Virus genome (UHGV): UHGV-1827629
DNA length: 16,097 bases
Reading direction: 5' to 3' (one strand)
Origin: a virus
Shown here: positions 5,147 through 16,097 of the stretch, piece by piece
How the letters are laid out: each line of letters starts with the position of its first letter
Numbering within the stretch: position 1 is the first letter of the stretch
The notes under the pieces: generated by a model
What the model was told of the DNA's origin: nothing
Databases searched by the model: none
Seen by the model: the letters and a program-made list of their open reading frames with translations, nothing else
Program-made: the position numbers and the translations under genes

Positions 5147-5851
5147 ATGAAAACATTCGCAGATCGACTCAACGCGGCTATGAGAGCCGCAGGCATATCC
5201 CAAGGGCAGCTGGCTGAGAAAGTCGGCATATCTCAACCTGCAATTCAGAAAATGACATCAGGCAAAACCACAGGCAGCCGTAAGATGGTTGAGCTTGCTC
5301 ATGCATTGAACGTGCGTCCGGAATGGCTCAGTTCGGGCATAGGCTCAATGCAGGACGAAGGACGCAAGGACTCCGCTATCCCACCAGAATCGGAATGGGG
5401 TAAAGTTGACGCTTGGGATAGCAAAACAGATCTGCCAGATGACGAGGTCGAAGTGCCATATCTGAAAGACATAGAACTTGCGTGTGGTGATGGTTCCTGC
5501 TTGGAAGATGACTATAACGGATTCAAACTTCGTTTTGCGAAGTCTACCCTTCGTAAGGTGGGAGCCCAGAAAGATAGCGTGCTGTGCTTCCCGGCATCAG
5601 GAAATAGCATGGAGCCCATGATCCCGGAAGGGACGACGGTCGCCATCAACACGAACGACAAAAAGATCGTTGATGGCAAGGTTTATGCAATAAGCCAGGA
5701 CGGATGGAAAAGGCTAAAATCCATTTATCGTGTGAGTCCTACCCGCATCGTGATTCGCAGCTTCAACAGTGAAGAGTATCCTGATGAAGAAGCGGATATC
5801 GAGAGCGTAGAGATTATTGGTCGCATGTTCTGGACATCTACTATCTGGTAA
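5147..5851 (+). CDS. cI: CI-like phage repressor (N-terminal HTH, C-terminal S24 LexA-like peptidase domain)
   Basis: HTH motif QGQLAEKVGISQPAIQKM; C-terminal GNSMEPMIPEGTTVAINT...WKRLK is the S24 Ser/Lys signature; divergent from cro across OR; no SD and ATG close to the putative -10. Confidence 0.85.
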   Translation: MKTFADRLNAAMRAAGISQGQLAEKVGISQPAIQKMTSGKTTGSRKMVELAHALNVRPEWLSSGIGSMQDEGRKDSAIPPESEWGKVDAWDSKTDLPDDEVEVPYLKDIELACGDGSCLEDDYNGFKLRFAKSTLRKVGAQKDSVLCFPASGNSMEPMIPEGTTVAINTNDKKIVDGKVYAISQDGWKRLKSIYRVSPTRIVIRSFNSEEYPDEEADIESVEIIGRMFWTSTIW

Positions 5852-6660: not shown

Positions 6661-6720
6661 ATAACTTATGTGATGATAATTATAAATTAGGTTATTGCCA
6701 TCACTCATAACTAAGGTTAT
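6661..6720. promoter_or_regulatory. OL: three operators ATAACTTATGTGAT (6661-6674), ATAAATTAGGTTAT (6682-6695), ATAACTAAGGTTAT (6707-6720), inverted relative to OR
   Basis: Reverse complements fit the OR consensus ATAACCTnAGTTAT; spacing 21 and 25 bp; positioned as in lambda between the cI operon terminator and the leftward early operon. Confidence 0.7.
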
Positions 6721-6723
6721 CTT
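6695..6723 (+). promoter_or_regulatory. Candidate pL (-35 TTGCCA 6695-6700, 17-bp spacer, -10 TATCTT 6718-6723)
   Basis: Sigma70-like hexamers with canonical spacing, overlapped by OL sites 1 and 2. Inference only. Confidence 0.5.
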
Positions 6724-7349
6724 TAATCCATCGAAACGAAACATCGACAGCTGAGCGAAGTTAGCCAGCGGCGGACAGCAAGTCGCCTGCTTCTTTAACA
6801 AATCAGACTGAGTGACAGGCAAGCCGTAGCTCTCCTGGCAAAAAGAAATGGCACCCGATGGGATCGAGGTAAGCACTGAGTCCGTATGCGTACGGTAGGT
6901 GTAGAGGACCACGCTGCGATGAGCTGATAAGTCACTCAATTTGAAGCGCTCCGATGATGGGGCGCTGATTCAACTTAGAGGAGTGATTCCAATGAAGAAC
7001 TAAAGCGGACAGACCGCAGCCTAAAGGCAATGCAGCAGTAATGATGCCGCCCTGAGTCGCCGAATGGCGAGCCTGTGTAGTGATGGGTCAAGGTTCTTAT
7101 ATCAAAACAAGCTCCGGTAAAGCAGCGCGAACGCCAGACGCGCACCGGTTATGAGCGGCGATGAGCGACAAGGTCTCAAGGGCATGTGCGCGGCCACTGC
7201 GAGAGTGTGGCGAAGTTTACCAGCAGCTCTTTGCGAGGGGCTGACGGTAAACAAAAAGAGGAGTGTGTATGGCAGATAAAAAAACGGCGCCACTACTGCT
7301 TAACGTAGACGCCAGCGAGGTACTTACTCAGACCGGGGAGCTTTTAAAG

Positions 7350-7571
7350 TTACTTGAACTTCCAGCCAGTTCCTTTCAGGGAATTCCTGAGCATGTCGTC
7401 GATCTGTTTTTTGACCGTGTCCGTGGCCTGATTGACAACATCGTCCTTAGTGATTTCTCGACCACAGTCAGCACAACTGACGCCGGTGAAATTTGTCTCA
7501 AAGTCAAAATCATCGGGCTGGTTGAACATCTCACTTCCGCAGTCAGGGCACACGGTCCGCATGGTTTGCAT
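7350..7571 (-). CDS. Small zinc-ribbon protein (73 aa; CPDCG...CADCG)
   Basis: Two CxxCG knuckles 22 residues apart; AAAGGA SD 7 nt before ATG (cat 7569-7571); by my hand count this frame is more coding-like than the overlapping + frame. The + ORF 7269-7610 is an unresolved alternative. Confidence 0.5.
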   Translation of the reverse strand: MQTMRTVCPDCGSEMFNQPDDFDFETNFTGVSCADCGREITKDDVVNQATDTVKKQIDDMLRNSLKGTGWKFK

Positions 7572-7829
7572 GAATATATCCTTTCTACTGTTGGGGAGAT
7601 TAAAGAGTAAGCGATTTCTTGCTGTTGGGGAATAGCGGGAAAGCGCGCGCCGGGCGCGGATAAATACCCCGGCACTAACTGGAATGTTTTGGGCTGGCAG
7701 ACGGTTATCAGCTAGTTGGTGAGGTAATGGCTCACCAAGGCGACGACGGCCTTCCCTGCTGCTTGAAAGCGGGGAGCCAGCACCAAAACATTTCTCCCGC
7801 ATCAGCGGGTAACGACAGAGGGTAAGGCT

Positions 7830-8105
7830 ATGAAAACAAGTAGCGGACAAGAGATTTTAAAGGGATTCAATGTTCGTGATATCTCTGCTGATTATGACGA
7901 GCCAAGGTTTGATGTTTTGTTTGTCCACGATGATGGCAAATGCCGGTATTCAAACGATGTTTTTGGTTCTGAGCAAGAAGCCATCAGTTACGCAGAAACA
8001 TGTAACGCCAGCACAGCAGACGATGAATGCTGGGACTACTACCAGCACTCTTCAAGCAGCGCCGACTGGAAGCTGATTCATCACATTGAAGCTAAAGCCG
8101 CCTAA
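7830..8105 (+). CDS. Hypothetical early protein (91 aa, acidic, Cys-containing)
   Basis: SD AGAGGGTAAGG before ATG at 7830; stop codon lies in the loop of an intrinsic terminator. Confidence 0.55.
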   Translation: MKTSSGQEILKGFNVRDISADYDEPRFDVLFVHDDGKCRYSNDVFGSEQEAISYAETCNASTADDECWDYYQHSSSSADWKLIHHIEAKAA

Positions 8106-14649: not shown

Positions 14650-14997
14650 ATGGAAGAAATAATTTTCACCCGCGACGAGGCGGCGAACTTCCTGCGCGTC
14701 AGTGAAGGGACTGTGGCCGAATGGATAAAGTCTGGAAGACTCGCCGCTACCCGCAAAAATCCCGCTAAAAAGAAAAGTCCATATCTCATCTGCAAGACAG
14801 ATTGCATTGCAGCGTTGAAGAACACGATCCACAATCAGCCGGTGAATGCGGTTGATGTGCAGGAGGGTAAAGCATGTCAATCAAACAACGTGCCGGTACG
14901 TGGCACTGCGACTTCGTTACGCCTGGTGGCGTCAGAATTAGACGGTCTCTTGGCACAACGGACAAAAGGCAAGCGCAGGAACTCCATGATCAGCTAA
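14650..14997 (+). CDS. xis: Excisionase (AlpA/Xis-type HTH), 116 aa
   Basis: [36 protein letters not shown] is an excisionase-type HTH; GGAG SD before ATG 14650; immediately upstream of and overlapping int by 124 nt in another frame. The track's 14494 start is probably an extension. Confidence 0.6.
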
Positions 14998-16037
14998 AAG
15001 CTGAAGCGTGGCGTGTAGACAAGATGGGGGAATATAAGGCGCACACTTTTGATGAAGCATGTGTGCGCTGGCTGAACGAGAAGCAGCATAAGAAGAGCCT
15101 GGACGATGATAAAAGCCGGATCGGATTCTGGCTTATGCATTTCCGGGGAATGGACCTGTCCGAGATTACAGAGGATAAAATTCTCTCGGCCGCCAGTGGA
15201 ATGGTAAACAGGAAGCACAGACTTAATTGGGAGTCACGGAGGGATAGTTGCCTCAGGATGGGTAAGCCTGTTCCCGAGTACAAGGAAAAGCCAGCAGCAC
15301 AGGCAACCAGAACAACACACCTTGCTTTCATTCGGGCTTTGCTCAGATGTGCGGCTAACGAATGGCGATGGATAGCCAAAGCGCCGAATATCAAATGCCC
15401 TGTTCCAAAGAACAAACGTATTCGATGGCTGACAAAAGATGAGGCGCAGTCATTAATACGTGAATTGCCTGACCACTTTAAGCCGGTGGTTGTTTTTGCT
15501 CTGGCAACGGGATTGAGGCGATCCAACATAACGGATCTGGAATGGTCTCAGATAGACATGCAGAGGAAGGTTGCGTGGATACACCCAGAGGATGCAAAAG
15601 CAGGCAGGGCGATTGGGGTCGCCCTTAATGATTCTGCATGCAGGGTATTACGCGATCAGGTAGGAAAGCACAATCGGTGGGTGTTCGTTCACACTGAATC
15701 ATCTGTTCGTCCGGATGGAACCAGGACTAAAGAGGTCAGGAAGATGAGGAGCGATGCTAACACAGCGTGGAGGGCTGCGTTAAGAAGAGCCGGAATTGAA
15801 AACTTCCGTTTCCATGATTTGCGGCACACCTGGGCAAGCTGGCTTGTGCAGTCCGGCGTTCCGTTATCAGCGCTTCAGGAAATGGGAGGTTGGGAGAGCA
15901 TTGAAATGGTTCAGCGCTATGCTCACTTAGCACCGAATCACCTGACGCAACATGCGATGCAAATTGACTCATTTCTGGCAGGAAATGGCACAAATATGGC
16001 ACAAGGCACGTTTGCAGACTTGGTGAATATCGCGTGA
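14874..16037 (+). CDS. int: Tyrosine site-specific integrase (P22/P4-like)
   Basis: N-terminal arm-binding motif [31 protein letters not shown]; C-terminal catalytic region [39 protein letters not shown] with the R..H.R.Y residues; strong SD AGGAGGG; ends 16 bp before the tRNA 3' end. Confidence 0.95.
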
Positions 16038-16052
16038 AGCCGCGTGGTTACT

Positions 16053-16097
16053 GGTGCCGATAATAGGAGTCGAACCTACGACCTTCGCATTACGAAT
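16053..16097 (-). tRNA. thrW: tRNA-Thr (anticodon CGU), 3' portion only (anticodon arm, T arm, acceptor 3' strand, CCA); 5' part lies beyond the window
   Basis: Reverse complement reads ATTCGTAATGCGAAGGTCGTAGGTTCGACTCCTATTATCGGCACCA: anticodon loop with CGT, GGTTCGA T-loop, 3' CCA. Matches my memory of enterobacterial thrW, a known prophage integration site. Confidence 0.75.

Follow-up and report, generated by a model that had tools for sequence, protein, structure and literature searches.

Bacteria classically control their own ribosomal proteins through mRNA leaders that mimic rRNA. Autoregulatory leaders of this kind, including those for S15, S8/spc, S4/alpha, and L20, are covered in the 2018 review by Meyer, as cited in PMC10931766. 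Ribosomal protein uS17 contacts helix 11 (h11) of 16S rRNA as its principal site, in addition to h7, h9, and h20/21 (PMC4604426, PMC3359968), and helix 11 of T. thermophilus holds a complex k-turn, Kt-11, k-turns being general architectural elements (PMC5061560). In rrn operons, a long RNase III stem with boxC, located just downstream of boxA, encloses the 16S rRNA (PMC8632103). A 2023 review of the extraribosomal functions of ribosomal proteins names uS17 only once, as a primary 16S binder, and mentions neither a uS17 mimic nor uS17 autoregulation.

Here, we compared with these systems a locus on a stretch of 16,097 nucleotides from a virus, UHGV virus genome UHGV-1827629 (referred to as the window). 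A sequence-only reading had pointed out an intergenic hairpin resembling 16S rRNA, for which it listed coincidence, a captured fragment, a structured RNA element, and an assembly artefact as options; it included neither the larger three-way junction nor the position in a phage early leader described below. Full-text searches of the literature, including those with literal sequences, yielded no description of a helix-11 element.

RESULTS

The hairpin copies helix 11 of bacterial 16S rRNA

Direct reading of the window placed the hairpin sequence, GCTAGTTGGTGAGGTAATGGCTCACCAAGGCGACGA, at 7711-7746, exactly where it had been reported, and it is indeed intergenic, lying between a zinc-ribbon gene on the minus strand (7350-7571) and an ORF on the plus strand (7830-8105). 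The apical stem is composed of 8 bp, in which TTGGTGAG (7715-7722) is paired with CTCACCAA (7730-7737), and is closed by the 7-nt loop GTAATGG (7723-7729), both as described before. When 401 nt were searched with Infernal, window positions 7704-7750 (+) were aligned to positions 237-283 of the bacterial small-subunit (SSU) rRNA model, which correspond to helix 11, at 32.2 bits (E 8.4e-8), and a search of the whole 16-kb window gave 37 bits (E 9.5e-8). The score is lower than the 50-bit gathering score because a single helix is present. The 47-nt alignment has a posterior of 1.00, and every consensus-uppercase position is retained. Furthermore, the 37-nt core (AGCTAG...GCGACGA) is identical to the 16S rRNA of Salmonella LT2 at 36 of the 37 positions and to an E. 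coli 16S copy at 35 (2 differences). The likeness to 16S rRNA noted earlier is borne out by these matches. The label "Vibrio/Aeromonas type" attached to it is too narrow, since the core agrees with the consensus common to bacteria.

The base of the helix reads GGTTATC...GACGGCC in the window versus GGGATT...GATCCC in host 16S, being unlike both Salmonella and E. coli. It matches the general bacterial consensus AUCAGCU...GACGACGG, and the internal loop AUCA...GACGA agrees with the bacterial consensus over the Kt-11 region. Sequences flanking the hairpin are unrelated to 16S; the similarity does stop on both sides, as had been noted. It is therefore only partly true that the element departs from helix 11 of its host: the apical 37 nt are 35 to 36/37 identical to enterobacterial 16S, and the base alone differs. 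The hairpin shares with helix 11 the secondary structure and the conserved nucleotides, including the Kt-11 internal loop, which may adopt the three-dimensional k-turn. The resemblance is real and far beyond chance.

A genuine 16S rRNA gene was rejected, as the scores (32.2 to 37 bits) fall below 50, the match is confined to model positions 237-283, and the flanks do not continue into 16S. At gathering thresholds, no Rfam family was detected in the window, and no dedicated Rfam family was found for the element or its relatives, which yielded SSU, tRNA, and hammerhead matches only. The earlier statement that the hairpin is not a terminator was correct: there is no T-run after 7737 or 7794, and the terminator scan found nothing there. 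The promoter and terminator scan likewise revealed no element-specific promoter or terminator.

Helix 11 forms one arm of a conserved three-way junction

RNAfold predicted for 7676-7812 a three-way junction of -69 kcal/mol (z -6.4). The whole element, defined by fold and covariation, spans 7681-7794 (+) and comprises P1, P2, and P3. In P1, the 5' arm GGAATGTTTTGGGCTGGC (7681-7698) pairs with the 3' arm (7776-7794), giving 18 bp with a bulged A at 7782 that is conserved among the relatives. P2 (7703-7751) is the helix 11 mimic, including the Kt-11 internal loop, the apical stem, and the loop (Rfam SSU_rRNA_bacteria 237-283), and P3 (7753-7775) is a variable hairpin at the position of 16S helix 12. 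Following the element is a small predicted leader hairpin, CCCGC-ATCA-GCGGG (7796-7809, +), conserved copies of which are found in HK639, phi80, and at least 120 viral contigs.

Thirty distinct relatives were aligned, among them E. coli and Enterobacter prophages, viral contigs, a Yersinia phage, and two Shewanella-type sequences. Paired cells made up 96.1% of this alignment versus 38 to 54% pairing in slid controls, and 13 both-side pair changes were counted against 3.3 ± 1.5 in shuffles, with none of the 500 shuffles reaching the observed number. Covariation extends to P1, to the basal part of P2, and to P3, with both-side changes in six P1 pairs and 5 of the 8 P3 pairs. In P2, it is the basal stem (7703-7706/7748-7751) that covaries; the sequence-only reading had proposed looking for such compensatory changes in the hairpin. 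Invariance of the apical stem among the h11 matches is partly imposed by the search pattern. P3 exists in two length variants, and as unrelated sequences in Yersinia and Shewanella phages, with a hairpin formed in all. In addition, the junction contains G-U pairs (e.g., 7705-7749, 7706-7748, 7713-7739, and 7757-7771), which would be A-C mismatches on the minus strand; therefore, the plus strand is the RNA. The element is a selected, plus-strand structured RNA, the P2 of which copies 16S helix 11 faithfully.

The element is located in the pL leader of a lambdoid prophage

The window covers the immunity and early region of a lambdoid prophage, with a cI-like repressor gene at 5147-5851 (+). At 6695-6723 (+) there is a promoter-like site, the homologous counterpart of the putative pL annotated in HK639. 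Downstream, 6770-6807 (+) contains a hairpin (6770-6787), an rrn-type boxA, TGCTTCTTTAACAA (6788-6801), and then ATCAGAC (to 6807), and the whole stretch aligns locally to the boxB-boxA region of the E. coli rrn leader. The homologous boxA site is annotated in phi80 as nutL boxA, and the pL transcripts of the window and of phi80 both open with an rrn-leader-like boxB-boxA arrangement. Since the pL-like site and boxA are on the plus strand, this strand is the direction of pL transcription. The element thus lies in the untranslated early-left (pL) leader, downstream of pL and the rrn-type boxA and ca. 35 nt upstream of the first ORF. The latter (7830-8105, +) starts with ATG at 7830, has a Shine-Dalgarno sequence, AGAGGG, at 7817-7822, and codes for 91 aa. 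Its product is acidic, not arginine-rich, and no protein family match was found for it.

A promoter, a hairpin with an rrn-type boxA, and an extended untranslated leader follow one another in the window before a long stem that surrounds a 16S-like segment. This layout resembles a scaled-down rrn operon. The leader, ca. 440 nt at 6775-7215, stands in place of the first half of the HK639 putL-like RNA, and no unusual fold stability was found for 6801-7215 (415 nt; z -0.16). It is followed, at 7216-7680, by an antisense insertion carrying the zinc-ribbon gene. In many relatives, the leader end GCGAGAGTGTGGCGAAG is joined straight to the helix-11 element, and in relatives devoid of the zinc-ribbon gene, ...GTGTGGCGAAG is joined straight to it. 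At the far end of the window, the 3' half of a tRNA (27.8 bits) at 16055-16097 (-) is cut by the window end and adjoins a 387-aa ORF (14874-16037), which we take to be an integrase; if so, the tRNA half is probably the prophage attachment site.

The inserted gene (7350-7571, -) encodes a CxxC zinc ribbon of the ECs_2282 family; it lies in the pL operon in antisense orientation and separates the long leader from the RNA element. NCBIfam NF047912 matches it at 80.6 bits and covers residues 100-155 of a long minus-strand ORF; as these residues alone are covered, the true start is Met94 at 7571. The 150-aa minus-strand CDS that PGAP draws across the RNA element is an over-extension, the model covering only residues downstream of Met94. 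Stops interrupt each of the three minus-strand frames over the element in 43 of 66 distinct contexts; therefore, the element is not coding on that strand. HK639_45 and some PGAP annotations show a 115-aa ORF on the plus strand at 7263-7610, which is probably a shadow ORF because the minus strand there encodes a well-supported zinc-ribbon protein.

These annotations bear on the reading of the hairpin as a neutral relic, be it a captured fragment of 16S rDNA, a chimera or mis-assembly, or part of a minus-strand protein gene. The near identity of the core to enterobacterial 16S would agree with such an origin, as would the PGAP CDS laid across the element in some genomes. We consider this reading most improbable. 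A stretch of 219 nt is matched at 100% identity in complete E. coli chromosomes, with at least 80% of it occurring in 11 of 5426 complete E. coli genomes, and close variants are present in isolated phages, which excludes an assembly artefact. The element is conserved while its flanks recombine, it shows compensatory changes, its helix base is not host-like, and the zinc-ribbon family model is restricted to the C-terminal 56 residues of the minus-strand ORF. Coincidence is excluded by the E-value and the recurrence described below. Capture of a fragment may fit a remote origin but leaves the present state unexplained, namely, the non-host base, the conserved junction flanks, and the compensatory changes in relatives. 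It was the option of a structured RNA element that proved correct, given the covariation, the conservation in more than 100 contigs, and the recurrence in several scaffolds.

The setting also calls to mind a site for a phage-encoded RNA-binding regulator, acting in nut/boxB-like or put-like antitermination. Such a site would be in place in a pL leader downstream of an rrn/nut-type boxA, the homologous leader of phi80 precedes the N gene, and a put-like RNA is found upstream in HK639 relatives. Nevertheless, 37 different proteins come after the element and at least five different sequences before it; Streptomyces, Shewanella, and N4-like phages carry the module and share no such regulator; a 7-nt loop on an 8-bp stem is unlike boxB; and the annotated putL of HK639 is a different, upstream sequence. 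A regulator site is, in our judgment, very improbable, and both this reading and that of a neutral relic are poorly supported.

Known types of leader RNA were examined individually. A lambda-type nut site, which would combine boxA with a short boxB hairpin bearing a GNRA-like pentaloop and a cognate N protein having an arginine-rich N-terminus, was rejected: a boxA-like site is present 900 nt upstream, but the 8-bp stem bears a 7-nt loop identical to rRNA, and the ORF lacks an arginine-rich product. An HK022-type put RNA, a two-stem element expected immediately downstream of pL or pR, was rejected as well: the HK639 putL-like RNA maps to ca. 7147-7272 of the window, where only half of it is retained, and 7681-7794 is a separate structure; the helix-11 element accompanies put-type as well as boxA-type leaders. 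An autoregulatory leader of a ribosomal protein was rejected because the element sits in the wrong operon: the downstream ORF encodes a 91-aa phage protein, and the proteins that follow in relatives are diverse. The AgvB/AsxR and Pas sRNAs map elsewhere, to the PR' moron site.

Helix 11 recurs in different RNA scaffolds of diverse phages

The position in the pL operon is common to the window, the E. coli prophages, and a Yersinia phage. In another E. coli prophage, a put-like RNA is immediately followed by a variant of 93% identity that differs in P3. The junction is also present in Yersinia phage vB_YenM_30.14, where P1 shows compensatory changes and P3 is unrelated; it is located downstream of cI and upstream of an ORF. 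In this phage, the CDS vBYenM3014_026 (L005 2252-2914) is annotated across the RNA junction; its true start is probably the ATG at ca. 2609, after a GGAGG located 3' of P1.

A degenerate scan of IMG/VR revealed the h11 core in at least 120 viral contigs, and among the matches listed, none continued into 16S or a 16S gene. At least six distinct RNA scaffolds (classes A, B, B', C, and others) contain the core, and the phages concerned are those of Enterobacteria, Yersinia, Shewanella, Stenotrophomonas, and Streptomyces, with the window-type scaffold constituting the largest group among the matches listed. A genome-wide scan with a class-A-specific pattern retrieved 3 Enterobacter species representatives only, so the exact window version is narrow in host range.

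Class B is a four-way-junction scaffold, in which the h11 stem shows a compensatory swap from U-A to A-U. In Escherichia phage ZCEC13 and Klebsiella phage SBP, it occurs as a stand-alone RNA with its own terminator. Its consensus fold is the expected four-way junction, the sequences being too similar for useful covariation. We had taken TGCTCTTTCC, upstream of class B copies, for an rrn boxA; this was withdrawn, since the motif is likelier a 3' stem strand pairing with GGTAAGGGCA, as in the tandem units of a P1-like plasmid described below. The withdrawal leaves the boxA at window 6788-6801 standing. At L019 4032-4049, the hairpin of the four-way-junction scaffold, GCCGGAGATCAGCGCCGG, resembles the E. 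coli sRNA rydB weakly (17.7 bits, E 0.14), which hints that rydB might be a relic of this scaffold family. Further scaffold types include a shorter one beside T-arm-like hairpins, an AT-rich type, a GC-rich type, and that of Streptomyces phages, and the Stenotrophomonas N4-like phage Paxi has its h11 copy within a tRNA cluster.

Two actinophage copies extend further into 16S. Streptomyces phage Omar (L008 550-667) matches SSU model positions 106-311 at 62.6 to 68.4 bits, and an actinophage contig (L236 692-796) matches positions 108-309 at 72.9 bits. Both score above the Rfam rRNA threshold and lie in non-coding phage DNA. Both lack h8 to h10 through deletion, and their h7, h11, and h12 stems carry compensating changes relative to each other, including a change from A-U to G-C. 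They are miniature 16S h7-h11-h12 junctions. Phage Omar also contains two matches to type II hammerhead ribozymes, at 1717-1781 and 2113-2175 (47.8 and 44.6 bits), located between small ORFs.

Helix 11 is one of many cargos in a constant scaffold

Viral contigs were then scanned for the conserved 3' leader, AARCATTTCTCCCGCATCNGCGGGTAAC. Among the matches listed, an h11 matching the core pattern was present in 2 of 92 new loci, with near-variants in 3 more; the remaining leader loci hold more than 20 other inserts within the same outer stem, GGAATGTTTTGG/CCAAARCATTTC. With re-found loci counted, h11 is the cargo in roughly one-fifth of the leaders among the matches listed, and it is the commonest single cargo type among them. 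The scaffold loci comprise 7681-7698/7776-7794 of the window, L001 2965-3062, L002 2365-2512, and L136 to L234, and the outer 12 bp of P1 are common to HK639, phi80, and more than 20 other cargo variants. The HK639 cargo is a truncated tRNA-like insert, which ARAGORN calls a tRNA but the Rfam tRNA model does not, and that of phi80 is a distinct insert just upstream of the N gene. Several other cargos end in T-arm-like hairpins. The idea that all cargos are tRNAs was rejected, as only the HK639 type and one further type were recognized as tRNA-like when 30 cargo loci were submitted to tRNA prediction. The cargo is thus hypervariable within a constant scaffold. Among the matches listed, 37 different N-termini follow h11-bearing leaders, and at least 5 different sequences precede them; therefore, the module is not tied to one particular protein.

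The 5' part of the four-way-junction scaffold was found in 1116 of 5426 complete E. coli genomes (ca. 20%), including P1-like plasmids, and is annotated in none of them. One such plasmid, NZ_CP032875.1 (L239 2930-3545), has three tandem scaffold units with different cargos in a tRNA cluster, adjoining TerB, DUF3927, and a Tad2 anti-Thoeris gene. In each unit, a stem formed by GGTAAGGGCA and TGCTCTTACC surrounds a T-arm-like hairpin and is followed by a second stem, GTTGTGRTG/CATCACAAC.

Hypervariable cargo in a constant scaffold is also what would be expected of host-RNA decoys in a defence arms race, with the h11 and tRNA-like cargos as bait, and the h11 module attracting a host nuclease, toxin, or sensor directed at this part of 16S rRNA rather than uS17. 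Phage tRNAs and RNA anti-CRISPRs provide precedents for RNA decoys, some cargos here are tRNA-like, the tandem plasmid units lie in a tRNA cluster beside an anti-Thoeris gene, and the hypervariable small ORFs that come after the leader are typical of accessory or anti-defence loci. We regard a decoy function as unlikely: no defence gene is consistently linked to the element, helix 11 is not known to be the target of any toxin or defence system, and the imitation of an entire h7-h11-h12 junction by actinophages is easier to reconcile with a platform for protein binding than with a cleavage site.

That other cargos fill the same place could alternatively mean that h11, as a stable hairpin with a k-turn, is purely architectural, i.e., a rigid building block with no ligand, in a leader devoted to RNase III processing or to controlling the translation or stability of the first gene. 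The general use of k-turns as architectural elements (PMC5061560) agrees with this reading. We nevertheless think it unlikely, and distinctly so, because if shape alone mattered, the apical stem and loop would be free to drift as P3 does, whereas the rRNA sequence is kept in otherwise unrelated scaffolds across phyla and independent phages mimic further 16S helices. Among the observations in favour of an architectural role is the position of the long P1 just upstream of the first pL ORF, for which the RNase III hairpin of the lambda N leader is a parallel.

DISCUSSION

Taken together, the results described above suggest that the imitation of part of the host ribosome by phages is purposeful. 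Our best inference from sequence is that the element is a processed or cis-acting RNA that would bind host uS17. Such binding would explain most economically why phages as distant as those of Streptomyces and E. coli retain, in scaffolds that are otherwise unrelated, the sequence of rRNA and not just any hairpin, and why h7 and h12 are added in some. The early transcript would fold into a pre-16S-like module, the long P1 stem of which would be a substrate of RNase III, like the stems on either side of 16S and that of the lambda N leader; P1 is accordingly proposed, by analogy, to be the processing stem that releases the module. The cut would part the leader from the downstream mRNA and free a stable RNA of ca. 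95 nt. The helix-11 mimic could then bind free host uS17, a primary assembly protein having helix 11 as its main rRNA site, and the resulting uS17-binding RNP would act as a sponge or decoy or as a recruited cofactor; it would not be the operator of a particular gene. An RNP acting in trans is probable, as opposed to an operator of the downstream gene, because stand-alone and tRNA-cluster copies carry the same module. Possible outcomes include reduced 30S assembly through uS17 titration, stabilization or protection of the early transcript, and sensing of free ribosomal protein. Binding of uS17 is proposed from the identity with its rRNA site, and a few bulged stems of 18 bp do not prove cleavage by RNase III; the mechanism as a whole, in which RNase III would release a helix-11 RNA acting as a uS17-binding RNP, we rate as a near-even prospect at best. 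Since tRNA-like and unrelated structures can take the place of this cargo, the general role of the scaffold may not need uS17 at all.

A broader view can be put forward more tentatively, as a possibility rather than an expectation. Phages of several phyla may encode mini 16S 5'-domain junctions (h11 or h7-h11-h12) that capture uS17, within a large, hypervariable, and unannotated family of host-RNA look-alikes (rRNA-like, tRNA-like, and others), carried in a common processing scaffold of lambdoid early leaders and tRNA clusters; these would serve to manipulate or sense host translation or to defeat RNA-directed defences. There is a realistic chance that the element is the visible tip of a larger, undescribed phage family of this kind. 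What is new here is a virus-borne rRNA mimic that is far more faithful than usual, directed at the uS17 site, for which no described mimic was found. Helix-11 mimics persist across phyla in RNA scaffolds that have no relationship to one another, and the most complete are entire miniature 16S junctions. Should uS17 binding hold true, it would represent a new phage route into, or sabotage of, ribosome assembly, would allow a first approach to the function of the small stable RNAs of phage tRNA clusters, which have long gone unexplained, and would bring to light a widespread family of modular RNAs that now lacks annotation. At a practical level, such elements yield spurious 16S matches in viromes, and genome pipelines annotate them as protein.

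Comparison with known systems places the element between several of them. It shares with 16S h11/Kt-11 a stretch of 47 nt with identical stem, loop, and internal-loop sequences, to which the actinophage relatives add h7, h12, and the closing pairs. It differs in being located in an mRNA leader, in having a phage-specific long enclosing stem, and in its non-host helix base. Compared with the ribosomal uS17 site, the window version lacks the h7, h9, and h20/21 contacts. Like the leaders of ribosomal protein operons, it belongs to an mRNA leader that imitates the rRNA site of a ribosomal protein just upstream of a start codon; unlike them, it is phage encoded and far closer to rRNA in sequence, and stand-alone sRNA versions exist.

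With the RNase III stems of the lambda N leader and pre-16S rRNA, the element has in common a long bulged duplex built from the flanks of a structured insert. The P1 duplex consists of 18 bp with one bulge, and of up to 22 bp in HK639, against about two helical turns for an RNase III stem. The position is also the same, i.e., between the nut/boxA region and the first pL gene in lambda and between boxA-boxC and 16S in rrn operons. In contrast to the lambda N leader, with which there is no sequence similarity, the apical part of the element is a swappable cargo, and cleavage of P1 by RNase III is putative. The put RNAs of HK022 and HK639 are likewise structured, cis-acting RNAs in the pL leader, and the HK639 putL-like RNA lies a few hundred nucleotides upstream of the scaffold; however, their sequence and fold are different, and the window is devoid of the first half of the HK639 putL-like sequence. 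Finally, phage tRNA clusters are known to produce small stable RNAs, such as species 1 and 2 of T4. The copies in phage Paxi and the scaffold relatives on P1-like plasmids are situated in tRNA clusters, and some cargos are tRNA-like, whereas the cargo in the window imitates rRNA, not tRNA.
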